Shown: one piece after another, positions 7,217-50,453 of the stretch | How positions within the stretch are numbered: position 1 is the stretch's first letter | Layout: each line of letters begins with the position of its first letter | Program-made: the position numbers and the translations under genes | Origin: Anaerolineae bacterium | GTDB taxonomy: Bacteria > Chloroflexota > Anaerolineae > Aggregatilineales > Aggregatilineaceae | NCBI GenBank assembly: GCA_016934195.1 | Contig: JAFGTJ010000030.1 | Span: 1-58,013, forward strand | Direction of reading: 5' to 3' | Length of the DNA stretch: 58,013 nucleotides | The notes under the pieces: generated by a model | What the model saw: only the letters and a program-made list of their open reading frames with translations | The model's database searches: none | What the model was told of the DNA's origin: nothing

Positions 7217-8392
7217 TTACTGTTCGTCGATGATTCCCATATCAATCGCTTCGTCCCAACCCACTCGTTGGCCTTCATCGTGCGAAATCGAGTCGGCCAG
7301 ATCGCTCAACGCATCGGTATCAAACATGCTCTCGGCCAGTTCCTCGTCAATGGCCTGACCAAATAACGCATCAGCGTCAAAGTCGGCCACTGGGTCCATA
7401 CCCGCCGGTTCCGGCTGCGCGTCGAACATCGCCTCAAGCGAGGCGGCGGAAGTGCCTTGCTTTTGGGATTGGCGCGAAGGCTTAGCCGCCGGAACATCAT
7501 CAGCTTTCTGTTTCCTGGCCGCAGGCCGGGATTCCGCTTTCGGAGCCGGGGCTGGCTCAACTTTCTTGATCGAATACGCCGCTTCGCCCAACATTTCGAT
7601 GATCTGGTCAGCAGTGCGGCGGCCATACAACATCACCGGGGCCATTGCGCGCCGGTTGGTTCCTTCAAACACCAGGCACAGAATATAATGGACGCCCAAT
7701 GCTAACCCGTACACGTCCAACCGCTCGCCGTTATAATAATGCATCGTCCAGGCATGACCGCCGACCAACGGGCCAATTTCCGCCGAACGCGCGAACATGG
7801 GACCCAAAACAGCGGCCAGAGTCTCCCGGTCAATATAGCCGGTTGCGCCACGCTCGATCAGGACCCGGCCCGTGCGATCCGCCAGGATAATACTCATGGC
7901 CCCGGCATCGCGCATCAGGTCTACTACCATCGTAGCCAATTCGCCGGTATCAACCGCCGGAACCGGTCCCAGGTCAACAGCAGGACCGGCAGCCGGAGCT
8001 TCGTCAGCGACAGCGGCCTCACCGTCCAGCGCGATACGCAGCCCGCGCACGAACGGCTCGCCTACCGGTCGCATGAAATACTGAAATGCGGCGTCTCCCA
8101 GAACGGACACGTCAACGGTTGGATCATCCTCTTGAGCCAGAACGATGACAGGCGTTGCCAGAAACTCACGACTGACTCGAGTCGCTAATTCGAATCCGTT
8201 CATCATACCGGGGATCGTATAGGCCGTTACCATCAAGTCGATCTCTGATCTTGAGACTTCGGCCAGCGCATCGTCCGAGGAAGGCACCTCGATCAAAATG
8301 CACGGGCGGTTGAGCAGCGCTAACGCGCCACGTACAATCGGCGCAACATCACGAGCAGCATCGACGACAACAATTCGGGGGATCGAGGGCAT
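7217..8392 (-). CDS. degenerate receiver (pseudo-REC) + Roadblock/LC7-like domain + Pro/Lys-rich and acidic tail
   Basis: The N-terminus has a CheY-like pattern but the catalytic positions are substituted: VVVDAARD, DLMVTAYTIPG, VLAQ and MRP replace DD, D, T and K. The middle (MVVDLMRDAGAMSIILADRTGRVLIERG...AVLGPMFARSAEIG) resembles Roadblock/LC7. The C-terminus is PAPAPK-rich, then D/E-rich. Confidence 0.75.
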   Translation of the reverse strand: MPSIPRIVVVDAARDVAPIVRGALALLNRPCILIEVPSSDDALAEVSRSEIDLMVTAYTIPGMMNGFELATRVSREFLATPVIVLAQEDDPTVDVSVLGDAAFQYFMRPVGEPFVRGLRIALDGEAAVADEAPAAGPAVDLGPVPAVDTGELATMVVDLMRDAGAMSIILADRTGRVLIERGATGYIDRETLAAVLGPMFARSAEIGPLVGGHAWTMHYYNGERLDVYGLALGVHYILCLVFEGTNRRAMAPVMLYGRRTADQIIEMLGEAAYSIKKVEPAPAPKAESRPAARKQKADDVPAAKPSRQSQKQGTSAASLEAMFDAQPEPAGMDPVADFDADALFGQAIDEELAESMFDTDALSDLADSISHDEGQRVGWDEAIDMGIIDEQ

Positions 8393-8798
8393 AGTCCATT
8401 ACCTGCTTAGTGTGATCAACAACCATCATTATACCGGGTTTGGATGGGAGTGAATACCATCCTGCTTCTATCCTAACGAATTTACCAAAGGTTGCAACCG
8501 GGTTAGGATTGTATTTTGACCCAATTTGCCGCCAGAAGCAACACATTCATGACAAATTCACATCAGTTACCCCCACAATGTCGCTATCAACCGCCGGGGA
8601 CGAATAAGACCATCGAGCGCATCATTAAGGGTGTGAAAGCATATATCGACCCAAACAGCATATAGGATACGCGCAGACCGCCAAAACCTGGGATAAAAAT
8701 ATTCGTTGCTGCTGTCTTACACCCCACACACTTAACTCATTGCTACCATATTTATATCATGAATTCGCCCGTGAGAGCACCGGGCACATTATCATTTG

Positions 8799-8827
8799 TT
8801 GACTCCGACCAGTGCATATGCTATCAT
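8799..8827 (+). promoter_or_regulatory. sigma70-like promoter candidate (TTGACT-17 nt-TATCAT) upstream of the Roadblock gene
   Basis: TTGACT at 8799-8804, an exact 17-nt spacer, and TATCAT at 8822-8827. It lies ~100 nt upstream of the ATG at 8928, inside a 535-bp lower-GC divergent spacer. Confidence 0.35.
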
Positions 8828-8927
8828 GCAGGCGGCATTATTAAGCAAACCAACAATCTGTATTAATCCACGATGCATTCACACATCTGCTGTCTGCCAA
8901 ATCCCGCACGGGAAAGGAGCACGATTT

Positions 8928-9299
8928 ATGGCAAAGTCGCGGACGGAGTTAATGGTTGATCGCCTGCGCGATCTGCAAGCCGGTACGCCTGATATTGAAG
9001 CCTCGGCGGTCGTCAGCGTGGATGGGCTGATTATGGCCTCGTCGCTACCGGCGGGCGTGGAAGAAGACCGAGTATCGGCCATGTCTGCTGCGATGCTTTC
9101 GCTCGGCGAGCGCATCGCCAGCGAATTAGGACGCGGCTTGCTGGATCAGGTATATATTCGCGGTGACAGCGGCTTCGTGATCCTGATGTCCGTTGGTGAA
9201 GAAGCCGTGCTAACAGCGCTGGTTCATGAAAATGCTAAGCTCGGGTTGGTCTTCCTTGATATGAGACGCGCCGCCGACGATCTCGAAAATCTGGTATGA
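8928..9299 (+). CDS. Roadblock/LC7 (MglB/CvnB-like) domain protein
   Basis: Start re-set to the ATG at 8928, preceded by GGAAAGGAG. The 123-aa product (MAKSRTELMVDRLRDLQAGTPDIEASAVVSVDGLIMASSLP...FVILMSVGEEAVLTALV) has the typical Roadblock/LC7 length and pattern. Confidence 0.85.
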   Translation: MAKSRTELMVDRLRDLQAGTPDIEASAVVSVDGLIMASSLPAGVEEDRVSAMSAAMLSLGERIASELGRGLLDQVYIRGDSGFVILMSVGEEAVLTALVHENAKLGLVFLDMRRAADDLENLV

Positions 9300-9341
9300 T
9301 TTTTCGATTATCTCCAACCATTCCACCTGATGATACACAAA

Positions 9342-9388
9342 CGACGGGGAGCAAGGCACCGGGCCTTAACCTCCCCGTCGCTCTTTTT
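9342..9388 (+). terminator. rho-independent terminator / possible pyrG leader attenuator
   Basis: 10-bp perfect stem CGACGGGGAG (9342-9351) / CTCCCCGTCG (9371-9380). The loop contains an inner AAGGC/GCCTT pairing. CTCTTTTT follows the stem. It sits between the Roadblock stop (9299) and the pyrG start (9418). Confidence 0.5.
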
Positions 9389-9399
9389 AACCGCAGTAA

Positions 9400-11076
<1,677 letters not shown>

Positions 11077-11087
11077 CGGATAACACC

Positions 11088-12125
11088 ATGTCCCTGATTA
11101 ATTACATCCAGACCCTGCCCAAAGCTGAATTACACGTTCACCTCGAAGGTTCCGTGCAACCGGACACGCTGCTCGAATTGGCGCAGCAAAACGGGGTTAC
11201 GCTGCCAGCCGCATCAGTGGACGGTTTGCGTGACTGGTACACCTACCGCGATTTCGATCATTTCATCGAAATCTTCTTCACGATCTGTCAGTGTCTGCAA
11301 ACGCCGGACGATTTCGCCCGCATCGCCTACGAATACGGGCGCAGCATGGCCGAAAACAACATCCGGTACGCCGAAGTCACCTGGACACCGTATACTCACG
11401 TCAACGAGCGGCTTTCCTGGGAAGCACTGCTGGCCGGAATCAATGCGGGGCGCGCGCGGGCCGAGCAGGAATGGGGCGTGATCATGCGCTGGATTACTGA
11501 TATTTCGCGGAACATGGTGGACAGCGCCGCCACAGTAACCGAGTGGGCGACTTCTCCTGAAGCGCGCGAAGGCGGCGTCGTGGCGCTTGGTCTGGGCGGG
11601 CCGGAGGTCAACTTTCCGCCCGAACTGTTCACCGATGCGTTTCAGATCGCCGTAGATCGGGGCCTGCACAGCAATCCCCACGCCGGAGAAACCATCGGGC
11701 CGGAAAGCATCTGGGGCGCGATCCGGGCGTTAAAAGCGGAACGGATCGGGCACGGGGTACGCGCCATCGAAGACCCGGCGCTGATCGCATATCTGGCCGA
11801 ACACCAGATTCCGCTGGAAGTGAATCCCACCAGCAACATTTGCCTGGGCGTGTTCCCGTCCTATGCTGAACATTCGCTGCGCCGGTTGGTAGACGCTGGA
11901 GTCTGCGTGACGATCAACTCAGACGATCCGGCGCTGTTCAACACCACGCTCACCGACGAATACCGCCACGCGATTGAGGACTGCGACCTGAGTCTGCAAG
12001 AACTGGAAACCACCGCGCTAAATGCCGTCCGCGCCAGCTATTTACCAGAAGACGACAAAGCCGCCATGCTCGCCACATTCCAGGCCGAATATAGCAGACT
12101 TCGTGCGCAATATGACCTATCATGA
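11088..12125 (+). CDS. add: adenosine deaminase
   Basis: LPKAELHVHLEGS metal-binding motif, HAGE, and SDDPALF near the C-terminus. Only 11 nt downstream of pyrG. Confidence 0.93.
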   Translation: MSLINYIQTLPKAELHVHLEGSVQPDTLLELAQQNGVTLPAASVDGLRDWYTYRDFDHFIEIFFTICQCLQTPDDFARIAYEYGRSMAENNIRYAEVTWTPYTHVNERLSWEALLAGINAGRARAEQEWGVIMRWITDISRNMVDSAATVTEWATSPEAREGGVVALGLGGPEVNFPPELFTDAFQIAVDRGLHSNPHAGETIGPESIWGAIRALKAERIGHGVRAIEDPALIAYLAEHQIPLEVNPTSNICLGVFPSYAEHSLRRLVDAGVCVTINSDDPALFNTTLTDEYRHAIEDCDLSLQELETTALNAVRASYLPEDDKAAMLATFQAEYSRLRAQYDLS

Positions 12126-12345
12126 AGGAGTGAATCCGGTGGATGACATAGAAACACTGTGGGCCAATATCCTGAGCCGTGACGCGGACCGAATCCGTGC
12201 CACCTGGGACGCACTCAACGCGGAGGAAAAAACCGCCGTCCGCGCTCACCTGACTCGGATGGTGACAGAACCGGATTGGAGCGAACCACAGCGCATCTCG
12301 GCCCAGGCTGCGCTGGACGCGCTGGAAAACGGTGAGGGGGAATAA
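12112..12345 (+). CDS. small hypothetical protein (77 aa)
   Basis: ORF overlapping the add stop. ATG at 12112, or an alternative GTG at 12139 that follows AAGGAG. No recognisable domain. Coding status rests on its position in the pyrG-add unit and a non-antisense composition. Confidence 0.45.
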   Translation: MTYHEGVNPVDDIETLWANILSRDADRIRATWDALNAEEKTAVRAHLTRMVTEPDWSEPQRISAQAALDALENGEGE

Positions 12346-12346
12346 C

Positions 12347-12374
12347 AGGGGCGCATCATACAGCCAACGCCCCT
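12347..12374. other. 7-bp GC-rich hairpin between convergent genes (no clear U-tract)
   Basis: AGGGGCG (12347-12353) pairs with CGCCCCT (12368-12374) around a 14-nt loop. An A-run follows on the + strand, so it is not a canonical terminator in either direction. Confidence 0.3.
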
Positions 12375-12397
12375 AAAAAACAACTTGAGGATAGATA

Positions 12398-12928
12398 CTA
12401 AGCGTTGCGGCGGCGGTCGATCAACTCGATGATCTGGAGCAGGACCTGCCGCACGCTCGATTTCTGGGTCGCCACACACGGCATGACCGTAATGTCCTCG
12501 CCCGGATTCATCCGGCGGCGCACCTCGGCCAGACTCACCGCGCCATCCAGGTCGGTTTTGTTTGCCACCACCAGATACGGCACATCATGGAAGCCGGAAA
12601 ACAGTTGGATCAGGTCTGCCGCATCGGGGAACGAGGGCGGGTCGGTGCTGTCCACCAACACAACAAACCCGTTCATTTCCCGTGCCAGAATTTCCCACAT
12701 GAAATCAAACCGCGCCTGACCGGGCGTGCCATTCAGGTGCAAAATCTTCCCATCCAGTTCCACACGGCCATAATCCATCGCCACCGTTGTTTCGGATTTA
12801 ATGCCGCGATCCTCGGTCGTAATTTTTCGTTCCGTTGTGACCACCGCGATATCCGAAATGGTGCTGATAAAGGCCGTCTTGCCCGAATTAAACGGGCCGG
12901 TGACAATCACTTTATACAGATTAGACAC
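12398..12928 (-). CDS. small GTPase, CvnD/MglA-type (COG2229-like)
   Basis: G1 GPFNSGKT, TTVAMDYGR (G2 region), G3 GTPGQARFDFMW, G4 ANKTDL. The TTVAMD.GR and GTPGQ.RF.FMW strings match my memory of Streptomyces CvnD proteins. Start placed at GTG 12926-12928, 5 nt after GGAGG; the track's TTG at 12940 is an alternative. Confidence 0.88.
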   Translation of the reverse strand: MSNLYKVIVTGPFNSGKTAFISTISDIAVVTTERKITTEDRGIKSETTVAMDYGRVELDGKILHLNGTPGQARFDFMWEILAREMNGFVVLVDSTDPPSFPDAADLIQLFSGFHDVPYLVVANKTDLDGAVSLAEVRRRMNPGEDITVMPCVATQKSSVRQVLLQIIELIDRRRNA

Positions 12929-12948
12929 AAACCCCTCCAACTTCCAGC

Positions 12949-13698
12949 CTACTCGTCGGCCTCATCCTTGTGCTTGAAATCGACAAAACGATACCCTACG
13001 CCGCGCTCGGTCAGAATATACCTGGGATCGGACGGGTCCTGCTCGATCTTTTCCCGTAAGTAATTGACGTACAGGCGGACGTAGTGGGTTTCGTCACGAT
13101 ATTCGTATCCCCACACTTTCGCTAACAACTGCTCGTGCGGCACCGTCCACCCGGCATTTTCGATCAGGTGATAGAGCAGCCGGTACTCGGTAGGCCGCAG
13201 CTTGATATGATTTCCCTGGACGATCACTTCCCGCCGGTTAAAATCCACGCTCAGCCGGTCGTCAATGGTCAAAACGGCCTGTTCCGGCGAAGCGCTAGGC
13301 ATATCGGCACGGCGCAGCACGGCCCGTAACCGGCTGGACAGTTCGCGCGAACCAAACGGCTTGGTGATGTAATCGTCCGCGCCCAATTCCAGGCCGTACA
13401 CTTTATCGTCTTCCTCACCCTTCGCCGTGAGCATAATCACCGGCAGATTCGAGAACTCGCGCAGCATTCGCAGCGTCTCGAACCCGTCCAACTCCGGCAT
13501 CATCACGTCCAGCAGCACCAGGTCCGGCAGTTGGGTTCGGATCACTTCCAGGGCTTTGACCCCGGTATGGGCTTCCAACACTTGAAACCCCTCAAGCTCC
13601 AGGTTCATACGAATGAAGCCAATCATGCGCGGCTCATCATCCACCACCAGGATACGTTTGACATCACGGGGGACAGCACGCGGCGGTTTACCCGACAT
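12949..13698 (-). CDS. OmpR/PhoB-family response regulator (intact receiver + winged helix)
   Basis: [31 protein letters not shown]; C-terminal [12 protein letters not shown]...GVGYRF. No histidine kinase gene anywhere in the window. Confidence 0.92.
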
Positions 13699-13746
13699 AG
13701 CTCAACCTTTTCCGTTCCATATACAGTCCAACCCACGACCCATACG

Positions 13747-13986
13747 CTAATCGACGAACGGGCCTTCGATTTCCTCTTCATCACCGGACGGCATGACTTC
13801 AATGAAGTTGATACGCCACCAGGGAACAATGATCGTTTGCACTTCGGGCAGAACATAGTGCAGGTCTTTGCCATCACGACGGCGCGGGTTTATACAATAG
13901 AGCACCTGATCGGCGGGTGCTGGCAATTCCTCGGTTTCGGCCATAATCGCTTCTTCGTTTGCAACATGAATCAACAGCGTATACAT
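13747..13986 (-). CDS. 79-aa hypothetical protein with acidic C-terminal tail
   Basis: ATG preceded by GAGGTAA at a good spacing. Sits 9 nt after the FHA gene stop and 48 nt before the regulator gene. No domain recognised. Confidence 0.5.
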   Translation of the reverse strand: MYTLLIHVANEEAIMAETEELPAPADQVLYCINPRRRDGKDLHYVLPEVQTIIVPWWRINFIEVMPSGDEEEIEGPFVD

Positions 13987-13995
13987 TCCATTACC

Positions 13996-14496
13996 TCATT
14001 TGAAAAAGATGTGCAGAGCCAGCTTGCCCAAACGGATCTCGTCACCATCACGCAGCACACGCGGCTGGTTCGGGATCAGGCGCTGGCCGTTCAGGTGCGT
14101 GCCATTGGTACTTCCCAGGTCCACCAGCGTGAGCGTATCCTCTCCCCGCCGGATAAACGCATGACGGCGCGAAACACCCTGCTCTGCTCCGCCATACGAG
14201 CCAAGATCGAGATCGGGCAGCAAGCCGGTATTGGTATCTGACCGTCCCACCAGAATCTCATCTTTGGCTTCAAGAACGACCGGAGTTTCATGGTCGCGTA
14301 CATGAATGACAATCGATGAGCCACGATCAAAGCGGGCGGTCCCCCACGTCACGCGGCCCTGAAAATTCGCCTGATCCGCATCAATCAGCTTGCTGGTCGC
14401 CAACACTTCCCGCTCGCCCACAAACGGGTGCCCGCATTCTTCACAGAACAAAACGCCTTCGCGGTTGTCGTGCGCGCAGTACGGACACGTCCTCAT
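13996..14496 (-). CDS. zinc-ribbon + FHA domain protein
   Basis: N-terminal CPYC...CEEC ribbon. C-terminal FHA signature ILVGRSD...VSRRHAFI...LVDLGSTNGTHLNGQRL. The start overlaps the upstream stop (TGATG at 14494-14498). Confidence 0.9.
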   Translation of the reverse strand: MRTCPYCAHDNREGVLFCEECGHPFVGEREVLATSKLIDADQANFQGRVTWGTARFDRGSSIVIHVRDHETPVVLEAKDEILVGRSDTNTGLLPDLDLGSYGGAEQGVSRRHAFIRRGEDTLTLVDLGSTNGTHLNGQRLIPNQPRVLRDGDEIRLGKLALHIFFK

Positions 14497-15980
14497 CAGT
14501 CTTCCGCCCCAGGTTCAGGTAAAGCCAGCAGCCGCCGGGTGCCAAACTTCAAGGTCTTGCGTCCTTCCTCGGACAGCATGTGGGTCTTGGACACACGACG
14601 CGCCTCCACAATTGCCATCTGGGCCAGGTCTTCTTGACCGGCAGCTAACAGCCGCGTTGCCAGATTTTCCAGTCGCCGGGTGGCCTCGACCACATTACCA
14701 CTCGTGGCGGCAGCCTCGGCCTTCTGCTGCATCCGGTACAGTGTCAATTTGCCCAGCGCATCCAAAATAGCCATCGGTGGTTCCTCTGGCGTCGGATCGC
14801 GGGCAATTTCAACCGAAATGTCGCTCAGAACCTTGTACCCCTGACGCTCAATGCCCAGAATATCGCCGGTCACATCCAGGCGGGCGACCGTCCGAAACCC
14901 GGTACGGGCGCTCGGCGGCATTTGCATCTGGAGCAGCACCGAAATCGGGCGGCTGAATTCCAGCGATCCGATAGGAATCGGCTGCGGACTGATCTCGACC
15001 GGTTGGGGACTGGGCTGTAACTTAAAAACCGATTCGAGCGACACATCGGCATCAGGCGCAGTCGAAAGACGCATCCGTTCACCGAAGGCCGATCCCAGGC
15101 TGCGCACCCGGTCATTCAGAAAACCCACAACCGCCGCTGGTGAGTTGATATAGGCCGATGCGCCGCCCGTGCGTGAGGCCAACGAATCGAGAAAGGCGTC
15201 ATTCCATTCCTCGCCAATACCCATTGCGCTGATCCCGATGCCTTCTTTATTGGCCTTATCAGCCAATTCAAGACATTGGTCTTCATCACCGAATGTCCGG
15301 CCATCGGTGAGCAGGATTACATGATTGACCAGGCGCGGACCAAGATAACGACGGCATTGATCAACCCCGGCCTTCAACCCGTGATAAATCTCGGTTCCGC
15401 CGTCGGCGCGCATCATGCTCACCATCGTTCGCAATCCGGCCTTATCGGTGACAGGAGCCGACGGGATCAACACATCTGCACGATCACTAAAGCTCACGAC
15501 GGATAGCACATCATCCGGGGATAACTGTTCGATGATCTGGCGACCCGCAATCTTGACTTTATCCAGCCGCATACCTTTCATCGACGTGCTGCGATCCAAT
15601 ACCAACACCAAGTTCAATCGCGCTTCTTTGGTCTGCTGCTGGGTATCGTGCCGCATGGGCACGATCTCCAACAACAGGTAAATTACCTGGGGTTCATCCA
15701 GCGCATTCAGAACCCGTTTGCTCGGCGTCACCCGCAGCGTGAAGTAGTTTGGCTCATCCCGATATTTACGCCGGGACGTGTCATAACGGACCCGCTGACG
15801 CGAGTTCCCCAGTATCTCATATGCCGCTGCGATATCGCGGAACTGGATATCAGCCCCTTCATTCGGGTTGGCGTCGGGATGGAACCGGCGAGCCGCGACT
15901 CGATAGGCTTCGCGAATATCCTCTTGAGTCGCCTCAGGGGGTATACCCAAAATTGCATACAGGTTGCGCGATGCGTCCAT
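14496..15980 (-). CDS. J-domain (DnaJ-like) + von Willebrand factor A domain protein
   Basis: N-terminal NLYAILGIPPEATQEDIREAYRVAARRFHPDANP, with the HPD tripeptide. vWA MIDAS string LVLDRSTSM (DxSxS), then ADGGTEI and LLTDGRTFGD. About 200 aa at the C-terminus are unassigned. Confidence 0.88.
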   Translation of the reverse strand: MDASRNLYAILGIPPEATQEDIREAYRVAARRFHPDANPNEGADIQFRDIAAAYEILGNSRQRVRYDTSRRKYRDEPNYFTLRVTPSKRVLNALDEPQVIYLLLEIVPMRHDTQQQTKEARLNLVLVLDRSTSMKGMRLDKVKIAGRQIIEQLSPDDVLSVVSFSDRADVLIPSAPVTDKAGLRTMVSMMRADGGTEIYHGLKAGVDQCRRYLGPRLVNHVILLTDGRTFGDEDQCLELADKANKEGIGISAMGIGEEWNDAFLDSLASRTGGASAYINSPAAVVGFLNDRVRSLGSAFGERMRLSTAPDADVSLESVFKLQPSPQPVEISPQPIPIGSLEFSRPISVLLQMQMPPSARTGFRTVARLDVTGDILGIERQGYKVLSDISVEIARDPTPEEPPMAILDALGKLTLYRMQQKAEAAATSGNVVEATRRLENLATRLLAAGQEDLAQMAIVEARRVSKTHMLSEEGRKTLKFGTRRLLALPEPGAED

Positions 15981-15988
15981 GAAGCGCC

Positions 15989-17038
15989 TTAACCCGGAAC
16001 ATAAACGAGAATGACCGTAATATTATCCGGCCCGCCTCGATCATTTGCCATTTGAACCAGCGTGTTACATGCGGTTTGCGGATCGCTGTGCTGAGATACC
16101 GTGCCCAGAATCACGTCTTCCGAAACCATGTTCCACAACCCATCGCTGCACAATAAGAGCCGGGACCGGGGATGCAAACGGCGCGTAATCGCGTCCACGT
16201 CCAACGAGTCGCTCTGCCCAATGGCGCGGTACAACACGTTGCGCTGAGGGTGATCCGGCACCTCTTCCGGCGTTAATTGATCCAGCTCAATCAAGCGCTG
16301 CACCAACGTATGATCGCGGGTCACTTGTTCAATACCTTCATCCGTGATCAGGTACGCACGGCTGTCGCCCACATGCGCGATATACGCCAGGTCCCCCACA
16401 ATCACGGCAGCGGTGACGGTCGTGCCACCTTCGGGAATCGCCTCCGTCACCGCATCGTTGGCTTCTTGCACAGCGGCGCGCAGCGTATCGGAGATAGAAG
16501 GCTGGTCCGGGTCGTTCATTTCAAGCCTGAGCATGGAAGTCAATATCTGGTTGAGCACATACTGGGTCACAATCCGAACCGTGATGGATGAAGCACGTTC
16601 ACCTTCCTGGTGACCGCCCATACCATCCGCGACCACGAACAACCCGAAGTCGGGCACGTCATCGTTGCTGGTACTGGTAGCCACTATCCCCATCATGGCA
16701 TCCTGATTATTGCCGCGCTGCATCCCCACATCGCTTAACTGACCAAATTGCAAGCGTTCGCCCGGCTTGGGAATAACCGTTTCAAGCGGCGGCAAAGGGC
16801 GGGTTCCTAACTCGGCCAAATCGTTTTTTTCATCAGGGGGCACCAGCGGCGTATCAGGCGCGACTACCTGAACCGCCTCAACCTCCACACCCGCCTTTGA
16901 TTGGACCGGAACTTCAACCACCGGCTCAGGCGGCGCGCTAGGGGCAGTATCTTCATGCGTGATGATAATGCCATCTTCTTTTTCAGAGGGGACACTGGAG
17001 TTATCGGGCAAACCCAGCACACGGCGTAAGAAATCCAT
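15989..17038 (-). CDS. PP2C-family Ser/Thr phosphatase
   Basis: About 100 aa of Pro/Val-rich linker, then DVGMQRGNNQDA, VVADGMGGHQEGERAS, LLCSDGLW, GGPDNITVILV. Confidence 0.92.
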   Translation of the reverse strand: MDFLRRVLGLPDNSSVPSEKEDGIIITHEDTAPSAPPEPVVEVPVQSKAGVEVEAVQVVAPDTPLVPPDEKNDLAELGTRPLPPLETVIPKPGERLQFGQLSDVGMQRGNNQDAMMGIVATSTSNDDVPDFGLFVVADGMGGHQEGERASSITVRIVTQYVLNQILTSMLRLEMNDPDQPSISDTLRAAVQEANDAVTEAIPEGGTTVTAAVIVGDLAYIAHVGDSRAYLITDEGIEQVTRDHTLVQRLIELDQLTPEEVPDHPQRNVLYRAIGQSDSLDVDAITRRLHPRSRLLLCSDGLWNMVSEDVILGTVSQHSDPQTACNTLVQMANDRGGPDNITVILVYVPG

Positions 17039-17057
17039 AGGTGTTTTCTCCGGCAGG

Positions 17058-18965
17058 TCACGCTTTCAGCGCGTAAACTTGATGATCCATAGACCCAATG
17101 TACACAATGCCGTCATGGACAGCAGGGGACGAGGTGATTTTGCCCTTTGTCTTATAACTCCAGCGCAGTTGGCCCGTTTTAGCATCCAGGCAATAAACTT
17201 GTTTATCAACTCCACCGAAATACACCGCACCTTCCACAAACACCGGCGACGAGGTGATCTGGCCTTCGGTTTCAAAGTGCCAGCGCTCTTTACCGCTAGC
17301 GGCTTCGATGGCGTACAGGCTTCCATCAACCGACCCAATATAAATCCGGTCATCGCCGTACACGGGGGAAGACACAATCGGCTTATTGGTGCGCAGCGCC
17401 CAGGCTTTCCAACCCCGCGTGATATCGAGGGCGTAGACGTGCCAATCCATTGAGCCGAAGAATACCAGTCCTTCGTGTGCGGTCGGGGATGACGACACAC
17501 CCCGTTTGGCCTTAAACCGCCAGACAACCTGCCCTGACAGATCGATCCCCGCCACATACCCGGATTCCTGACCAACAACGATCAATTCGCCGGTAACGAG
17601 GGGGCGGGTACGAATGGGATCGCCGCCTTCCCACACCCACTGGATTCTGCCTGTTGCCAGCCGGATCGCATAGAGATTGCCATCATCGCTGCCGAAAAAT
17701 ACATGCCCGTGCATGACCGTCGGGGAAGACTGAACCGGCCCCTTGGTCGCCACAGACCAGGACAATTGGCCGGTACGCATATCGACCGCATACAGCGAAT
17801 GATCCAGCGAGCCGTATAACACCAGATTCTCATCCTCGGCCACCGCAGGTGAGGACACAATCCCCTGATCAGTGGGATATTTCCAGCGGAAGGAACCGTC
17901 ACTGATATTTATGGCATACAGGTTGTTATCTTGCGCGCCGACATATAACACGCCCTTGTGAACGACCGGCGAGGAACGAATTTCATCCTCACAGGCAAAT
18001 GTCCACACCGGCTGAATCCCTTCCTCGGACCATTCAGCCACAGTTTCATCGGAAACCGTATCGGCGCTCACAAACGGCATACCAACCACGACCTGGGGCT
18101 TCTGGAGCTTTTGCAGCGCATCGCGCATCGCCGATGCATTGGGATACCGGTCATCCGGCTTAAAGCTCAGCGCGCGCATGATCACGGCATCCAGGTCCGG
18201 CGACACATTCGAATTCGCCTCACGAATGGGACGCTCGGCAAACGTAAAGGGCGGCTCAAGACGCGGATCGCGCCGGGTCAAGATGTGGTGAATAGTCGCC
18301 CCCACCCCATACACATCACTGGCGGGACTGGCCTCGCCCCGGTACTGCTCCGGCGCTGAATAGCCCTCTGTGCCAATCATGGTCCCTTTTTGGCCTGCCT
18401 GGAAAATCTTGGCGATGCCAAAGTCCACCAACCGGATGCGATCATGTTGATCGATCATGATATTGGACGGCTTCACATCTCGGAAGATGATGGGTTCCGG
18501 CTCCTGCTGGTGCAGATAGCCCAATACATCACAAATTTCCACCGCCCACTGTAACACCATCTCGACCGGGAGCATATCTTGAGTCGAATTGATGATTTGT
18601 TCCAGGTCACGCCCGTTAATGTATTCCATCACCAGGTAGGCGCGCGTTTTGCTGGGGAAATAGTCGTAGATTTCGGGCACCGCCGGGTGATTCAGCGAGG
18701 CCAGCATATCCGACTCGCGCTCGAATGTTTTCAGGGTCATTTCACGCATGGCCTGATCGGTCGTCAGATTCAACATTTCCTTGACCGCGACATGCCGGAC
18801 CACGTTGGGAAAACGCAAGTCCCTGGCCTGGTAGACGGACCCCATACCGCCAACGCCGATCACGCCTGTGATGCGATAACGCCCTTGCAGCACAGCCCCC
18901 GGCTGAAGCGCATTGTCGCCTGGTTGTTCAGGCATGTTTCTGGCGAACTTCTGTGTATCGACCAT
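17058..18965 (-). CDS. Ser/Thr protein kinase with C-terminal PQQ-like beta-propeller repeats
   Basis: GVGGMGSVY, VAVKEM, FRDVKPSNIMI (F replaces the usual H of HRD), VDFGIAK, GTEGYSAPE. About 8 repeats of the ...LYA(I/V/L)D... PQQ-propeller type follow. No TM segment. Start re-set to the ATG at 18965 (AGAGG upstream); the track's start at 18974 is a TTG. Confidence 0.93.
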   Translation of the reverse strand: MVDTQKFARNMPEQPGDNALQPGAVLQGRYRITGVIGVGGMGSVYQARDLRFPNVVRHVAVKEMLNLTTDQAMREMTLKTFERESDMLASLNHPAVPEIYDYFPSKTRAYLVMEYINGRDLEQIINSTQDMLPVEMVLQWAVEICDVLGYLHQQEPEPIIFRDVKPSNIMIDQHDRIRLVDFGIAKIFQAGQKGTMIGTEGYSAPEQYRGEASPASDVYGVGATIHHILTRRDPRLEPPFTFAERPIREANSNVSPDLDAVIMRALSFKPDDRYPNASAMRDALQKLQKPQVVVGMPFVSADTVSDETVAEWSEEGIQPVWTFACEDEIRSSPVVHKGVLYVGAQDNNLYAINISDGSFRWKYPTDQGIVSSPAVAEDENLVLYGSLDHSLYAVDMRTGQLSWSVATKGPVQSSPTVMHGHVFFGSDDGNLYAIRLATGRIQWVWEGGDPIRTRPLVTGELIVVGQESGYVAGIDLSGQVVWRFKAKRGVSSSPTAHEGLVFFGSMDWHVYALDITRGWKAWALRTNKPIVSSPVYGDDRIYIGSVDGSLYAIEAASGKERWHFETEGQITSSPVFVEGAVYFGGVDKQVYCLDAKTGQLRWSYKTKGKITSSPAVHDGIVYIGSMDHQVYALKA

Positions 18966-19097
18966 CGAGTACAACCTCTACTTCATCCAAATTGAGCGGG
19001 AGCGTGGGGCACTTAGCGCCTGGATGTCAACCTGTTTTGTGGTTATTATAGTGTCGCTATAGGGTTCTCGCAATTGCACTGCGAGAGGAATAATACC

Positions 19098-20303
19098 ATG
19101 ATACCTCGTCAACCCCACATCCCTAACCCTACAACAACTTATCAATATTTGCTAGCCCTCTATATTCATGTCCCATTTTGCCGAACACGCTGCACTTACT
19201 GCGCGTTCAACACGTACACCGGACAATCAGGGCATATACCGGCCTACCTGGATGCGCTGCGGCGCGAAGTCAATCTCGTGACCGGCCAGGATCGCCCTCC
19301 GGCCCACACAATCTACTTTGGCGGCGGCACGCCCAGTCTGCTCCTGGCGGAACAAGTTGGCGCGCTGCTGCGCCATTATGCGGCGCGTTTTACATTGGCA
19401 CCGGATACCGAAATCACCCTGGAAGCGAATCCCGGCACGGTAGACCAACCGTATCTAAACAAACTCAGACAAGCCGGAGTCAATCGCCTGAGTGTCGGGA
19501 TGCAGTCGGCTCACGAACGAGAATTAAAACTGTTTGGACGGCGGCACCACCTGGAACACGTCAGCGCAACGGTCCGCATGGCGCGCGCGGCGGGTTTCGA
19601 CAACATCAGCCTGGACCTGATCTATGGTGTGCCCGACCAAACCCTGGCAATGTGGCAGGCCAGCATCCAAACCGCCCTCCGCCTGCAACCGGATCACCTG
19701 TCGCTGTACAGCCTGGGTCTCGAAGAAGGCACCCCCCTGTACCGTTCGGTGATAGAAGGCCAACTCGCCGATCCCGATCCCGACCTGGCGGCGGATATGT
19801 ACGAATGGGCGTCGGATTACTTGGCCGCACAAGGATTTGAACAATACGAAATCAGCAATTGGGCCAGACCGGGCGCGACCTGCCGCCATAACGTCCACGT
19901 CTGGCGCAACCAACCGTACCTGGGATTCGGGGCAGGCGCGCACGGCTACTCTAACGCGACCCGCTACGCTAACGTGGACCATCCCCAGGCATACATCGAG
20001 CGCATCCAGGCGCAACCGGAACCGCTGCGCTTCCCGCTCTCGGCAGCGGCGGAAACGGTCGAATCCGTAGATCAGCAGCAGCATATGAGCGACATGATGC
20101 TGATGGGACTGCGGCTCACCCGCGATGGTATCACGGCAGATGACTTTCATGCCCAATGCGGGCGCAATTTATGGGACGCATTCGGCGCGGAACTGAACCG
20201 GCTGATCGGCACAGGGCTGCTCGAACATACTACCGACGGGCATATCCGGCTGACCCAGCGGGCGCGCCTGATCAGCAACCAGGTTTTTATGGCATTCGTC
20301 TAG
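19098..20303 (+). CDS. hemW: radical SAM HemW/HemN-like heme chaperone (coproporphyrinogen III oxidase family)
   Basis: LYIHVPFCRTRCTYCAF (CxxxCxxC), YFGGGTPS, HemN C-terminal-like region. Start re-set to the ATG at 19098 after GAGAGGAA. Confidence 0.88.
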   Translation: MIPRQPHIPNPTTTYQYLLALYIHVPFCRTRCTYCAFNTYTGQSGHIPAYLDALRREVNLVTGQDRPPAHTIYFGGGTPSLLLAEQVGALLRHYAARFTLAPDTEITLEANPGTVDQPYLNKLRQAGVNRLSVGMQSAHERELKLFGRRHHLEHVSATVRMARAAGFDNISLDLIYGVPDQTLAMWQASIQTALRLQPDHLSLYSLGLEEGTPLYRSVIEGQLADPDPDLAADMYEWASDYLAAQGFEQYEISNWARPGATCRHNVHVWRNQPYLGFGAGAHGYSNATRYANVDHPQAYIERIQAQPEPLRFPLSAAAETVESVDQQQHMSDMMLMGLRLTRDGITADDFHAQCGRNLWDAFGAELNRLIGTGLLEHTTDGHIRLTQRARLISNQVFMAFV

Positions 20304-20320
20304 ATTTTGGAAGGTGAGCT

Positions 20321-20824
20321 ATGCGGCGGTGTATAATCGGCCTATTGGTTGTGGTACTGGCAGCGCTGACCGGCTGTGGAAACGACTCGGACTCGGATAC
20401 CAATTCAGAGCCAGATCAGCCTGCCTCCCCGACGGCGGCGACCCTATCGCCGGTATTGATCCATTTACAGCAGGACTACGAAGCGCTGCGCAGCGCCCAA
20501 CAAACCATCACCGATATCTGGGATGGGCTGGCAACCGGCCAACAGGTCCAATGTGGCGAATATCCCGCCGTACTGAATCCGAGAGATATTTCGGACGAAG
20601 GGGATTCCAGCTTCACGGAGTTGGCGGATCATCTGCGCCGCGCCGCTGTGGAAACCGAACGCGCCGTCAACTTGTGGCAGGCCGAATGCCTTAATCCGCG
20701 CGCCAATCCCTCGTCGGACGTGATCGACCAGGGCCGGTTAGCCAGTCGCGCGGCAGGTGATGCGCTGCGCGCCGCCGAAACGCTGCTCGACAGTATTCAG
20801 GGTCGCGATCAGGACACAGAGTAA
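20321..20824 (+). CDS. hypothetical lipoprotein
   Basis: Signal peptide plus lipobox (LAALTGC). No recognisable domain. The 3' end overlaps the convergent fni gene by 16 nt. Confidence 0.6.
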
Positions 20825-21852
20825 AGCGGCGTTTGCTTCAATGCCGGGATATCGGCGGCACCGCTCGCAAACATGGCGATCCGAAGCTGCGCGGAGAGTT
20901 CCCTGATCAACTCGCGTACCGCGTCAAGGGAGTGGTTGGCCGCCTTGAGAAATGGTCCGGCTAACCCGCCCAGGTCCGCGCCCAGGGCGATACACTTGGC
21001 GACATCCACGCCATCGCGCAGACCACCGCTGGCAATCACCGGCACACCGGGCGCACCTTCGCGCGCGTACCGGATCGCGTCGGCGGTGGGAATCCCCCAA
21101 TCGGCAAAACTGCGCGCAACGTTGGCGTGGTGCTTCGTTGGGGCGCGGTGATATTCCACTTCGCTCCACGAGGTTCCCCCCGCCCCGGCCACGTCAATCA
21201 CGGCGACTCCGGCCCCGGCCAACTGCTGCACGGCCTGCGACGAAAATCCCCACCCGACTTCTTTGGCAATCACGGGCACCTCAAGCTGACGACAGACCGT
21301 CTCCACCTTTGCCAGCAATCCGCTGAAATTGCAGTCACCTTCGGGCTGGACCGCTTCCTGAAGCGCGTTAAAGTGCAAAATCAGCGCGTCGGCCTGAACC
21401 GTTTCAACGGCGCGTCGGCACTCATCAATGCCATAACCGTAATTCAACTGCACCACGCCCAGGTTGGCAAAAAGCAGAATATCCGGCGCAACGGCGCGCA
21501 CATCATACGTCACCGCTGCTGCCGGGTCTTCGACAGCCGCCCGCTGCGACCCCAACGCCATTGCGATCCCGGCTTCCTGGGCGGCCTCGGCCAATGTGCG
21601 GTTGATCTGCTGGCCGCGTTCAGTCCCGCCGGTCATGGAGGAAATCAAAAACGGGCTGTTGAGAGTCTTGCCCAGGAACGTCGTGCCGGTATTCACCTGG
21701 GACAAATCCAGTTCGGGCACCGCCTGGTGCATAAAACGCCAGCGCTCCAACCCGGTTGTCAGGTTCGGAAACTGGACCGGCTGCTCAAGGTTAATGCGGA
21801 TATGATCATCCTTGCGGCGCGGGGTATCGGGCGTATCCGTAACTTTCGACAT
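20809..21852 (-). CDS. fni: type 2 isopentenyl-diphosphate delta-isomerase (FMN-dependent)
   Basis: [40 protein letters not shown]: the IDI-2 pattern. Confidence 0.93.
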
Positions 21853-29169: not shown

Positions 29170-29712
29170 TTAGTCGTCCAGTTCGGCCAGCTTGCGCCGG
29201 AATTCGGCCGTAAAAATGTTGAATGCCCGCGCGTCGTACAGGCAGACTATGGCGCGCTTCAGGCTGTTCAGGTCCTCAAAGGTATAGTCAATGATGACGC
29301 GCAACATCACGTCCGCGCAGCCTTCGAGCGGGTAGCCAAATACGCCGGTCGAAATGGCCGGAAACGCGATGCTGCTCAAGCCGCGCCGTTCGGCTAATTC
29401 CAGGCTGGCGCGCACGGCGTTCGCCAGCTTGCCGGACTCGCTGCCCTCGCCCATACGCGGTCCAACGGCGTGAATCACATGCCGCGCCTTGAGATTCCCC
29501 CCGCCGGTAATCACAGCACTGCCAACTTCACAGAATCCCAGCGCAAGACACTCTTCCTGAATAGCCGGGCCGCCCTTGCTGCGAATCGCTCCGGCCACGC
29601 CCGATCCCAGGATCAACTGGGAATTGGCCGCATTGACAATCGCATCAACCTCCAGATCGGTGATATCCCCCTGAACTAACTCAATCGTCACCTCATTTAA
29701 GACAGCCTGCAT
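29170..29712 (-). CDS. macro domain protein (O-acetyl-ADP-ribose deacetylase-like)
   Basis: ELVQGDITDLEVDAIVNAANSQLILGSGVAGAI...IHAVGP...IAFPAISTGVFGYP. Confidence 0.9.
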   Translation of the reverse strand: MQAVLNEVTIELVQGDITDLEVDAIVNAANSQLILGSGVAGAIRSKGGPAIQEECLALGFCEVGSAVITGGGNLKARHVIHAVGPRMGEGSESGKLANAVRASLELAERRGLSSIAFPAISTGVFGYPLEGCADVMLRVIIDYTFEDLNSLKRAIVCLYDARAFNIFTAEFRRKLAELDD

Positions 29713-49356: not shown

Positions 49357-49442
49357 AAAACCCACCATCCAAGTTTTTAAATCAAACCGTCAAACCGAAC
49401 CGTAACTTCTTCCCGCAGTATAGCAGAAGCTGGTCCGGCAGG

Positions 49443-49931: not shown

Positions 49932-50453
49932 GTGGAGCGAAATTTTGTGAATATAACAACCCGATTGCTGCGCTGGACATGGCGCGCCGGACGACGTGTC
50001 ACCACACACCGGCTGATCCGGGCGGGCAGCCGTACCGCCGTCACGACCGCGCTAAACGTAGGGCGACAGTCCGCCATTGATGCGGCATTAGGAGCCGCCG
50101 CCGACACGCTGCCCTTTACCGCATCCACAGCCTACACCCAGGTTTTCAACGTAAAATCTCCCGTCACGGTCTACGTGCGCGGGAGTCACTGCCGCGTCAC
50201 CGTGCAGCGAGACGACATCTCGCAAGTGATCCTGGAAGCGACTATGGCGCGCGCCTTTGGCCTCGAGTTTGTGACGGATCAGGATGATGCCGGAGTGTAT
50301 ATCGTCGCGCGGCGCAAACCGGTTACAGGCAAACTGGCGCGGGCCGAGTTTACCATCACGGCTCCCCATGACAGCCACCTGGTTTTTAACCTGACACCGG
50401 GCGACGTAATCCTGCACCATATTGACGGAATGCTGGAACTGCCCAACTGTTAG
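49932..50453 (+). CDS. hypothetical beta-rich protein (possibly DUF4097-like)
   Basis: GTG-start ORF. The C-terminal half has alternating beta-strand-like segments ([18 protein letters not shown]...[24 protein letters not shown]). The assignment is tentative. Confidence 0.4.

Follow-up and report, generated by a model that had tools for sequence, protein, structure and literature searches.

Modules in which forkhead-associated (FHA) proteins and those of the von Willebrand factor A (vWA) type are combined with a Ser/Thr kinase and a phosphatase are widespread, the TerY-P, ArnA/ArnB and DRA0331-DRA0334 systems being examples, and the path that leads from them to gene expression is mostly unknown. 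In this work we analyzed an operon of seven minus-strand open reading frames (ORFs), delimited from the ORF list and by reading of the sequence, that occupies positions 12398-18965 of a 58,013-nt stretch of an Anaerolineae genome (hereafter the window). This operon ties a module of the above kind to a classical DNA-binding response regulator and hence offers a direct, testable output. The Anaerolineae are abundant in wastewater and sediments and, to our knowledge, almost nothing is known about their regulation. The six-gene core of the operon is one conserved transcription unit across this class, and on balance we consider it probable that the operon encodes a cytoplasmic, ArnA/ArnB-like Ser/Thr phospho-switch wired to an OmpR-type regulator and devoted to a stress or starvation response.

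The closest described relative is the ArnA/ArnB system of Sulfolobus acidocaldarius. The ArnB phosphosites bound by the FHA domain of ArnA sit in the C-terminal helix bundle of ArnB, and the zinc finger of ArnA contacts the ArnB sandwich and C-terminal domain; FHA binding becomes tighter when a kinase phosphorylates the helix bundle, a phosphatase reverses this effect, and the system is starvation-responsive (PMC6509490, PMC12852372). The kinases of the network are ArnC and ArnD, its phosphatase is PP2A, and the module represses motility; the authors found no DNA binding by ArnA/ArnB. A P-loop GTPase, SaGPN, is recovered in purifications together with ArnA/ArnB and PP2A (PMC12852372). Other systems resemble parts of the operon. 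In TerY-P, as in the operon, genes for a vWA protein, a PP2C and a Ser/Thr kinase cluster together (PMC7699616). The bacterial DRA0331-DRA0334 operon of Deinococcus radiodurans, similar by gene content, encodes vWA, Ser/Thr kinase, FHA and PP2C proteins and is subject to push-pull phosphorylation control through FHA docking (bioRxiv 10.64898/2026.01.23.701218). The AfsK-AfsR pair of Streptomyces comprises a Ser/Thr kinase with a C-terminal PQQ propeller and a regulator with an OmpR-type winged helix (PMC1262709).

Layout and conservation of the operon

The seven ORFs are listed below in the order of transcription, all with coordinates in the window.

17058-18965 (alternative start at 18974), minus strand, Ser/Thr kinase with a PQQ-type propeller
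15989-17038, minus strand, PP2C phosphatase
14496-15980, minus strand, J domain and vWA protein
13996-14496, minus strand, zinc-ribbon and FHA protein
13747-13986, minus strand, 79-aa ORF
12949-13698, minus strand, OmpR-type regulator
12398-12928 (alternative start at 12940), minus strand, small GTPase

A first-pass annotation made from the sequence alone had proposed these ORFs and their spacing, and both were confirmed by the ORF list and the sequence. Its domain calls were likewise supported by a Pfam profile check, the 79-aa ORF having no Pfam match. The intergenic gaps from kinase to GTPase measure 19, 8, -1, 9, 48 and 20 nt. The last of these falls to 8 nt if the GTPase starts at an upstream TTG; its GTG start at 12928 lies 5 nt past a GGAGG sequence. 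Spacing is equally tight in the window and in nine orthologous loci with precomputed gene calls. The FHA start codon overlaps the vWA stop codon in the sequence TGATG, and an overlap of 4 nt or 1 nt recurs in L005, L008, L009, L091, L093 and L094, so that the vWA and FHA genes are predicted to be translationally coupled. A terminator scan detected no intrinsic-terminator-like site between the seven genes, in agreement with the initial claim; two weak minus-strand matches lie inside the kinase ORF, and the total number of matches equals that expected from shuffled sequence.

Two elements flank the operon.

19045-19073, minus strand, sigma-70-type operon promoter (-35 TTGCGA, 17-nt spacer, -10 TATAAT; 10/12 matches)
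12346-12375, minus strand, GC-rich hairpin of 9 bp followed by GUUAUU, 22 nt past the GTPase stop codon, a possible weak terminator

The promoter lies about 80 nt 5' of the kinase ATG, in the 108-bp gap that separates this gene from a divergent hemN-like radical-SAM gene. A TATAAT box is present 30-122 nt 5' of the kinase start in 76 of 80 orthologous loci, preceded in their column consensus by a TTGC(G/A) -35 element, and by our estimate a chance TATAAT is expected in fewer than one in ten such upstream regions. The hairpin downstream of the GTPase has a folding energy of -15.6 kcal/mol but a z-score of only -1.29 against shuffled sequences; it was missed by the terminator scan and was not retained as a terminator. 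In several orthologous loci, OmpR or the GTPase is followed by a clear terminator made up of a hairpin and a U-tract. No RNA family was detected between positions 11800 and 19400 with Rfam at gathering thresholds.

The distribution of the operon was examined using an alignment of the 79-aa protein as a marker against one genome per species, which identified relatives encoded in 415 species genomes. The 80 best loci from this search were then compared through tblastn with the seven window proteins, and the counts given here refer to loci whose contigs extend far enough.

Kinase domain, 72/72 loci
Propeller, 73/73 loci
PP2C, 73/73 loci
vWA, 74/76 loci
Zinc-ribbon and FHA, 78/78 loci
OmpR, 76/76 loci
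GTPase, 13/75 loci

The analysis outlined a six-gene core encoded on the same strand and in the same order (kinase-propeller, PP2C, vWA, zinc-ribbon-FHA, 79-aa protein and OmpR), and this order, strand, spacing and promoter are kept where the proteins have diverged to 30-60% identity. The gene order predicted from the window is hence conserved for the six core genes, but not for the GTPase. The core is present in Anaerolinea thermophila, Leptolinea sp. HRD-7, Aggregatilinea, Thermoflexus, Ardenticatenaceae and Promineifilaceae, and cultured members that carry the operon include Aggregatilinea lenta, Anaerolinea thermophila and Leptolinea. Named loci among the 80 best belong to Chloroflexota/Anaerolineae, apart from probable mis-binnings. 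Three sequences bear odd labels: "Patescibacteria group" (L080), "Candidatus Sulfomarinibacteraceae" (L066) and "candidate division KSB3" (protein P0220). They are nearly identical to Chloroflexota locus L068, Chloroflexota locus L065 and the window, respectively, and their contigs were probably mis-binned in the corresponding metagenome-assembled genomes.

Departures from the core are few in kind. The vWA gene is missing from L038 and L056, where the kinase lies about 1.5 kb nearer to the 79-aa gene and the FHA and other genes are present, and several core genes appear split in L006, which suggests frameshifts or assembly errors. The core is single-copy, class-wide and vertically inherited in a housekeeping neighbourhood (hemN-like gene, CTP synthase, FTHFS, rpoB and topA), with no mobile elements in the neighbourhood of the operon.

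An ArnA/ArnB-like protein pair and its partners

The vWA protein matches the Pfam DnaJ (8e-19) and VWA (7e-17) families, with the HPD motif of the J domain at residues 34-36, and the residues of its metal-ion-dependent adhesion site (MIDAS; D129, S131, S133, T196 and D226) are invariant in 84/84 loci. An AlphaFold2 (AF2) model of this protein, with a predicted local distance difference test score (pLDDT) of 86.8 and a predicted template modelling score (pTM) of 0.83, comprises a J domain, a short beta element, vWA, a beta-sandwich and a C-terminal four-helix bundle, in this order. Foldseek searches with the model returned first a Catenulispora vWA protein (4fx5, E 5e-26), together with ArnB in the ArnAB complex (8s05_A, E 8e-25, template modelling score on the target 0.75) and vWA2, a paralog of ArnB (5a8j, E 7e-20), and the top alignments (4fx5, 8s05_A/B and 5a8j) span 420-450 columns. 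Matches to Sec24/Sec23 appeared at around 1e-12, ranking below inter-alpha-inhibitor heavy chain and a range of vWA-domain proteins. By sequence as well, the top vWA match in the PDB is ArnB (8s05_A). Two threonines in the helix bundle, T442 (A-T-R-L-L) and T481 (G-T-R-x-L-L), are near-invariant, and both have a leucine at position +3. FHA domains usually read the residue at +3.

The J domain is a frequent, but not universal, addition to the vWA protein. Its HPD motif is intact in about three quarters (~74%) of the loci and degenerate in about 10, and the vWA proteins of Promineifilaceae-type loci are without a J domain. In L077, for instance, the vWA gene (8218-9471) encodes a 417-aa protein in which the vWA domain starts at residue 46. 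J-less vWA proteins are also encoded in L035, L041, L045, L047, L054, L068, L080, L082 and L090.

The FHA protein combines an N-terminal four-cysteine zinc ribbon (Pfam Zn_ribbon_3, 5e-6) with an FHA domain (Pfam FHA, 2e-18). The zinc-ribbon cysteines C4, C7, C18 and C21 are conserved in 85/85 loci, the phosphothreonine-binding residues R85, S109, R110, H112 and N131 are invariant in 87-89 loci, and matches to PDB sequences include ArnA (5a8i and 8s05_C). The window pair resembles ArnA/ArnB in coupling a zinc-finger and FHA protein with a protein made up of a vWA domain with intact MIDAS, a beta-sandwich and a helix bundle. By analogy with Arn, and from the position and context of the conserved threonines, the operon kinase would phosphorylate the helix bundle and FHA binding would depend on this phosphorylation. 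Several differences set the two systems apart. The operon is bacterial, it is a single unit with its own kinase and a PP2C rather than PP2A, its vWA protein carries an N-terminal J domain, and it has a dedicated OmpR-type regulator and a 79-aa beta-barrel protein built in, whereas the route of Arn to transcription is unknown. Sequence identity to ArnB is about 18% and there is no archaellum; archaellum genes were not found in the window and the named loci are all bacterial. We hence regard the vWA-FHA system as a structural and functional analogue, or a distant homologue, of Arn and not as a member of the Arn network.

The kinase protein consists of a Hanks-type Ser/Thr kinase domain (aa 1-290; Pfam Pkinase, 8e-41) and a PQQ-type beta-propeller (aa ~310-635; Pfam Beta-prop_ACSF4, 7e-73, and PQQ_2, 1e-48). 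K62, the RD and DFG motifs and the activation-loop residues T195 and T199 are conserved in 75-82 of 82 loci. The best NCBIfam match is AfsK, at 236 bits against a cut-off of 1300 bits, and for this reason the protein is considered similar to AfsK in architecture only and not its ortholog. The phosphatase matches Pfam PP2C (1e-17) and, at 231.8 bits, lies above the 230-bit cut-off of the NCBIfam model Stp1_PP2C_phos (Stp1/IreP family). It has a Pro/Glu-rich N-terminal extension of about 100 aa, and its catalytic residues D299, G300 and D338 are invariant in 84/84 loci. None of the seven proteins contains a hydrophobic (membrane) segment, which indicates that the system is cytoplasmic and that the propeller is not an extracellular sensor.

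Of the six core proteins, the OmpR-type regulator shows the strongest conservation (65-93% identity); it comprises a receiver (REC) domain (Pfam Response_reg, 7e-31) and a winged helix (Trans_reg_C, 6e-25). Its best NCBIfam matches, RpaB, YycF and MtrA, are all below cut-off. Residues D20, D64 and T91 of the REC domain and the other positions checked are near-invariant (86-89 of 89 loci). No HisKA/HATPase histidine kinase was detected among the large ORFs scanned in the window, a scan that left out a few ORFs of at least 140 aa, and none is adjacent to OmpR in the nine annotated orthologous loci. The initial description of an intact regulator with no histidine kinase nearby therefore stands, and the operon constitutes a natural system for asking how Ser/Thr phosphorylation reaches a two-component regulator that lacks one. 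Given that the acceptor pocket is conserved, His-Asp and Ser/Thr signals may converge in the operon. The catalytic and binding motifs of its proteins are all intact, those of PP2C and of the GTPase (G1, G2 and G3) included.

The 79-aa protein, for which no Pfam or NCBIfam match was found, belongs to a family of 98 clusters that share 49-100% identity and are nearly all 79-81 aa long; the ORF is a genuine gene. The family has 285 representatives among 1.84 billion proteins. In an AF2 model (pLDDT 88) the protein folds as a small five-stranded beta-barrel whose best Foldseek matches, all weak (E 0.013-0.2, template modelling score ~0.57), are LSm/Sm proteins, a likeness that may denote a fold class and not a function. 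The 79-aa protein thus defines a conserved small-protein family, and it is homologous to a family of longer proteins (hhalign probability 99.4%, E 5e-22) found beside topA. These relatives have 140-175 aa and no Pfam family; the same N-terminal barrel is followed in them by an acidic, disordered linker, and an LLRRIRD-like motif stands at the C terminus. In 45 of the 53 metagenome loci (from L095-L174) with enough sequence, their genes are located directly 5' of topA and on the same strand, as in L119 (long form at 8001-8453, topA at 8498-10987). A possible placement of the long relatives in kinase, FHA or vWA contexts was discarded, their position being upstream of topA, and a 173-aa ORF (49932-50453) located 5' of the window topA was rejected as a paralog of the 79-aa protein (hhalign probability 0.6%). 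The barrel is hence repeatedly found beside DNA-transaction proteins, since its neighbour is TopA in the family of long forms and an OmpR-type regulator in the 79-aa family.

The combination of these proteins departs from each of the other described systems. TerY-P is a sporadic defence or stress island, whereas the operon is a class-wide, vertically inherited core locus to which FHA, the 79-aa protein and OmpR belong as further, obligatory components. DRA0331-DRA0334 has a different gene order, its PP2C bears a KI-FHA domain of its own, and it lacks a J domain, a 79-aa protein, a response regulator and a GTPase. AfsK-AfsR has no vWA/FHA pair, and the window regulator is a classical REC and winged-helix protein, not a Streptomyces antibiotic regulatory protein (SARP). 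A further relative of the core is PpkA/PppA/Fha1 of type VI secretion. The composite appears new because its known relatives lack the J-vWA fusion, the 79-aa protein, the REC and winged-helix regulator and the GTPase. Full-text literature searches returned no description of it, bearing out the initial statement that it was not recognizable as a described system, and the kinase, PP2C, vWA and FHA grouping had also been called correctly. The operon is nonetheless not a categorically new system, and it is conserved across a whole class.

The GTPase and other genes downstream of the regulator

The seventh protein matches Pfam ATP_bind_1, Ras and Arf, and presents the motifs GPFNSGKT (G1), T47-T48 (G2), GTPGQ (G3) and NKTD (G4). 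G67-T68-P69-G70-Q71 and T47-T48 are invariant in 19/19 orthologs, and N123 of G4 is found in 17/19 loci. A GTPGQ G3 motif together with a Thr-Thr G2 motif marks groups 2-5 of the MglA family (Wuichet and Sogaard-Andersen, PMC4316618), and on these motifs the GTPase is assigned to that part of the family. Its earlier designation as MglA/CvnD-like holds in the broad sense. The best full-length PDB match is Thermus MglA (7e-8). Neither the TVPGQ motif of group-1 MglA nor its arginine finger is present in the window GTPase. Group 5, the group present in Chloroflexi, has widely varying neighbourhoods, among which an association with this operon is not described (PMC4316618).

The presence of the GTPase was scored at the operon locus only. 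It follows OmpR in 13/75 species loci and is absent from 62/75 with a complete core. In a neighbour-joining tree of kinase, vWA and OmpR, the GTPase-bearing loci (L093, L094, L092, L005, L001 and the group of the window) fall in one clade, in which at least three GTPase-less groups are nested (L015/L020-L023, L012/L013 and L026/L027/L091); outside it, L008, L039 and L048, all distant, have the GTPase after OmpR as well. Beyond OmpR in the nested GTPase-less loci, at a distance of 255-366 nt, come the convergent genes for adenosine deaminase or CTP synthase that follow the GTPase in the window, and the presence or absence of the GTPase amounts to a clean difference of about 600-700 bp. The cultured type strain Aggregatilinea lenta (L091) illustrates this arrangement, with the six core genes followed by CTP synthase, Roadblock, REC-Roadblock and FTHFS as in the window, and no GTPase. 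The gene seems to have been present in the ancestor of one clade, with at least three later losses inside that clade. Across loci the identity of the GTPase follows that of OmpR (53-92% versus 66-93%), in keeping with vertical descent with losses.

All the GTPase orthologs whose context was examined lie in the operon cluster, and many others seem to share its contig. The orthogroup is for this reason considered dedicated to the operon. The gap between OmpR and the GTPase is 6-20 nt across loci, with a 4-nt overlap in L008, and in the clade of the window the two genes are predicted to be co-transcribed and sometimes translationally coupled. SaGPN, by its co-purification with Arn, provides a loose parallel. 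MglA-family GTPases are known to act with REC-domain proteins (PMC4316618) and, given this precedent and the coupling with OmpR, the GTPase would most likely supply an extra, nucleotide-dependent input by modulating the regulator or its REC domain. As a clade-specific and dispensable accessory, it stands outside the core mechanism.

Two Roadblock genes are encoded in the vicinity.

7217-8392, minus strand, REC and Roadblock gene (Pfam Response_reg and Robl_LC7)
8796-9299, plus strand, Roadblock/MglB-like gene (Pfam Robl_LC7, 2e-17; weak MglB match)

They are located 3-5 kb from the GTPase, past the CTP synthase and adenosine deaminase genes, and the nearest, at 3.1 kb, is on the other strand. 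Their synteny is kept in the clade of the window, also in loci without the GTPase (L012, L013, L019-L022, L026, L027 and L091). These genes are not in the operon, and their products are possible partners of the GTPase. Together with the GTPGQ and Thr-Thr motifs, they lend the locus a likeness to conservons and to MglA-MglB. The G4 motif of the GTPase is however NKTD and not the NxFD of group 2 (PMC4316618), no CvnA histidine kinase or CvnC/DUF742 protein was found among the window ORFs scanned and Roadblock is not adjacent. Membership in the conservons was rejected on the basis of the G4 motif and the missing CvnA and CvnC.

To establish what else occupies the position after OmpR, the first same-strand ORF was clustered across loci. 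A full-length RelA/SpoT homologue (Rel), a (p)ppGpp synthetase/hydrolase, follows OmpR in 18 species loci from Promineifilaceae/Ardenticatenaceae lineages, often within about 20 nt. In L077 it spans 10989-13262, begins after a 5-nt gap and contains HD, RelA_SpoT, TGS and ACT domains, and the others are L033, L036, L038, L041, L045, L053, L055, L063-L066, L068, L080, L082, L085, L088 and L090. From this adjacency, the operon may be connected with the stringent response. Rel and the GTPase both deal in guanine nucleotides.

Chaperone genes are the other recurrent occupants. HSP20 follows OmpR in 11-13 species loci and DnaK in two (L040 and L070) as well as in L008, L093 and L094; either gene lies directly downstream in 15/72 species loci, plus L001, L005, L008 and L092-L094. 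The HSP20 genes span 10651-11076 in L001, 10654-11079 in L005 and 8632-9066 in L092, and the DnaK genes 8683-10581 in L093 and 8677-10560 in L094. The DnaK is bona fide, as it scores 1003 bits with NF001413 against an equivalog cut-off of 648 bits. Most of the chaperone genes lie behind a hairpin and U-tract terminator and have their own TTGC..TAnnnT promoter, L048 with a gap of about 13 nt being an exception; these genes count as conserved neighbours of the operon and not as part of it. In addition, OmpR is followed by a NarL-type (REC and GerE) response regulator in L009/L010 (11063-11722) and by a small Zn_ribbon_8 protein in L006 (11088-11297). The alternation of Rel, HSP20, DnaK and the GTPase at this position, together with the J domain, points to stress or starvation control.

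Proposed mechanism, alternatives and genomic surroundings

These elements can be arranged in a putative mechanism. The AfsK-like kinase would sense a cytoplasmic ligand or protein via its propeller and phosphorylate threonines of the vWA helix bundle, probably T442 and T481, and possibly the regulator too. The FHA protein would then clamp the phosphothreonines and alter the state of the vWA-FHA complex, with PP2C resetting the switch. This state may be relayed to the OmpR regulator, perhaps via the 79-aa beta-barrel protein, leading to a change in transcription. In most lineages the J domain would recruit DnaK, and in the clade of the window the GTPase may add a nucleotide-state input at the regulator. 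Precedents for Ser/Thr kinases acting on regulators include PknH-EmbR and the action of PrkC or Stk1 on WalR or CovR. The phosphorylation of AfsR by AfsK constitutes another such precedent (PMC1262709).

Several observations weigh against this proposal of an Arn-like switch acting through OmpR. A shared OmpR-type operator was not found in the 260-330 nt 5' of the kinase (~80 loci) and the upstream regions of hsp20 and dnaK: the motif search returned only the sigma-A promoter, the A/T-rich elements 5' of the hsp20 -35 box are lineage-specific and not common across clades, and no operator motif is common to the hsp20/dnaK promoters and the promoter of the operon itself. The usual presence of a terminator and a separate promoter makes the chaperone link one of neighbourhood only, and no hsp20, dnaK or rel gene lies beside the operon in the window. 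Recruitment of DnaK is not essential to the core, because the J domain is absent from Promineifilaceae-type loci and its HPD motif degenerate in others. The Sm-like fold match of the 79-aa protein is weak, with E-values of 0.013 or worse. Since the phospho-acceptor pocket of OmpR is perfect, phosphorylation of its aspartate by an unlinked histidine kinase or by acetyl phosphate probably still matters. The kinase substrates, the FHA targets and the regulon of the regulator are moreover all inferred.

The initial interpretation of the locus was that of a phospho-Ser/Thr-gated G-protein switch, in which the kinase/phosphatase pair replaces the histidine kinase of a conservon and the GTPase acts as the central relay to OmpR. 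The tight spacing and co-transcription of the GTPase with OmpR, the location of all its examined orthologs in the cluster, the parallel identities expected from joint vertical descent and the Roadblock/MglB-like genes 3-5 kb away are in line with this idea, and the GTPase, where present, is dedicated to the operon. The GTPase is however dispensable and not of conservon type: it is missing from most loci with a complete core, it was apparently lost at least three times in its own clade with OmpR left abutting the same downstream genes, its place is taken by Rel, HSP20 or DnaK in other lineages, its G4 motif is NKTD, CvnA and CvnC were not found among the window ORFs scanned, and the Roadblock genes stay where the GTPase is gone. 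We consequently deem a G-protein switch unlikely, the initial idea being borne out in part only; because the GTPase is non-central, lacking in near relatives and not conservon-type, and because the Roadblock genes are kept in loci without it, the substitution of a conservon histidine kinase is not the best description of the operon, whose closest relative, ArnA/ArnB, was not named in the first-pass annotation. A different role for the GTPase can be envisaged from the eukaryotic Sec23/24 proteins. Sec23 is the GTPase-activating protein (GAP) of the small GTPase Sar1. ArnAB, with its zinc finger, vWA trunk, beta-sandwich and helical domain, has been described as sharing the Sec23/24 core (PDB 8s05 title; PMC12852372), and MglA-family GTPases have been discussed as possible Arf/Sar ancestors (PMC4316618). 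Taken together, these points mean that an operon of an ArnAB-like pair and an MglA-family GTPase could reflect an ancient partnership, in which the vWA-FHA complex would act on the GTPase as an effector or GAP platform under the control of phosphorylation, a prokaryotic forerunner of Sec23/24-Sar1 employed in transcriptional signalling. As the GTPase lies beside OmpR and not beside the vWA and FHA genes, and is optional, we view this analogy as a decidedly improbable one.

A chaperone-titration heat-shock sensor is a narrower and more specific version of the proposed Arn-like switch. In it, the vWA-FHA complex would be linked through the J domain to the occupancy of DnaK, and free DnaK would set, jointly with the kinase and the phosphatase, how active OmpR is, with OmpR driving hsp20 and dnaK. 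Chaperone titration is an established principle, with sigma32-DnaK and HspR-DnaK as examples, and this version agrees with the HPD motif seen in most loci and with the hsp20 or genuine dnaK genes located immediately downstream in many separate lineages. The J domain is nevertheless missing or degenerate in about a quarter of the loci, the operon has no adjacent chaperone gene in the window or in its close relatives, the operator search gave no motif in common and in 18 loci the gene after OmpR is Rel and not a chaperone. With J domain and chaperone neighbours being common but not universal, we treat this version as a tentative possibility that is more doubtful than not. An anti-phage defence system of the TerY-P type would account for the presence of the vWA, PP2C and kinase triad (PMC7699616), and the kinase domain does match PADLOC kinase models, with PP2C matching one candidate model. 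No PADLOC match was obtained for the vWA, FHA, 79-aa and GTPase proteins, the result for vWA being that of a search at E<=1e-3 against a library whose TerY content is not established. The vWA protein is furthermore ArnB-like and has extra domains, and the operon is single-copy, class-wide and vertically inherited in a housekeeping setting without mobile elements. With only generic kinase models and one PP2C candidate matched, and with a contrary distribution, we rejected a defence function, which we regard as very improbable. Incidental adjacency of unrelated genes is refuted for the six core genes by the conservation of order, strand, spacing and promoter despite protein divergence, and is for the operon as a whole scarcely credible.

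The rest of the window is ordinary core chromosome, with rpoB, topA, CTP synthase, FTHFS, MoeA and glycosyltransferase/O-antigen genes. On the promoter side of the operon lie a hemN-like radical-SAM gene, a 167-aa ORF without Pfam match and an FMN-dependent dehydrogenase gene (19074-20824, plus strand, and 20809-21852, minus strand), which are syntenic in the clade of the window, L001, L005 and L091-L094, but not in more distant Anaerolineae. Three further genes of the window are unlinked to the operon.

46870-49368, minus strand, 832-aa AAA and MalT-like TPR (STAND-type) protein
35439-39374, minus strand, 1311-aa protein with bacterial Ig and cadherin-like repeats
29170-29712, minus strand, stand-alone Macro-domain protein

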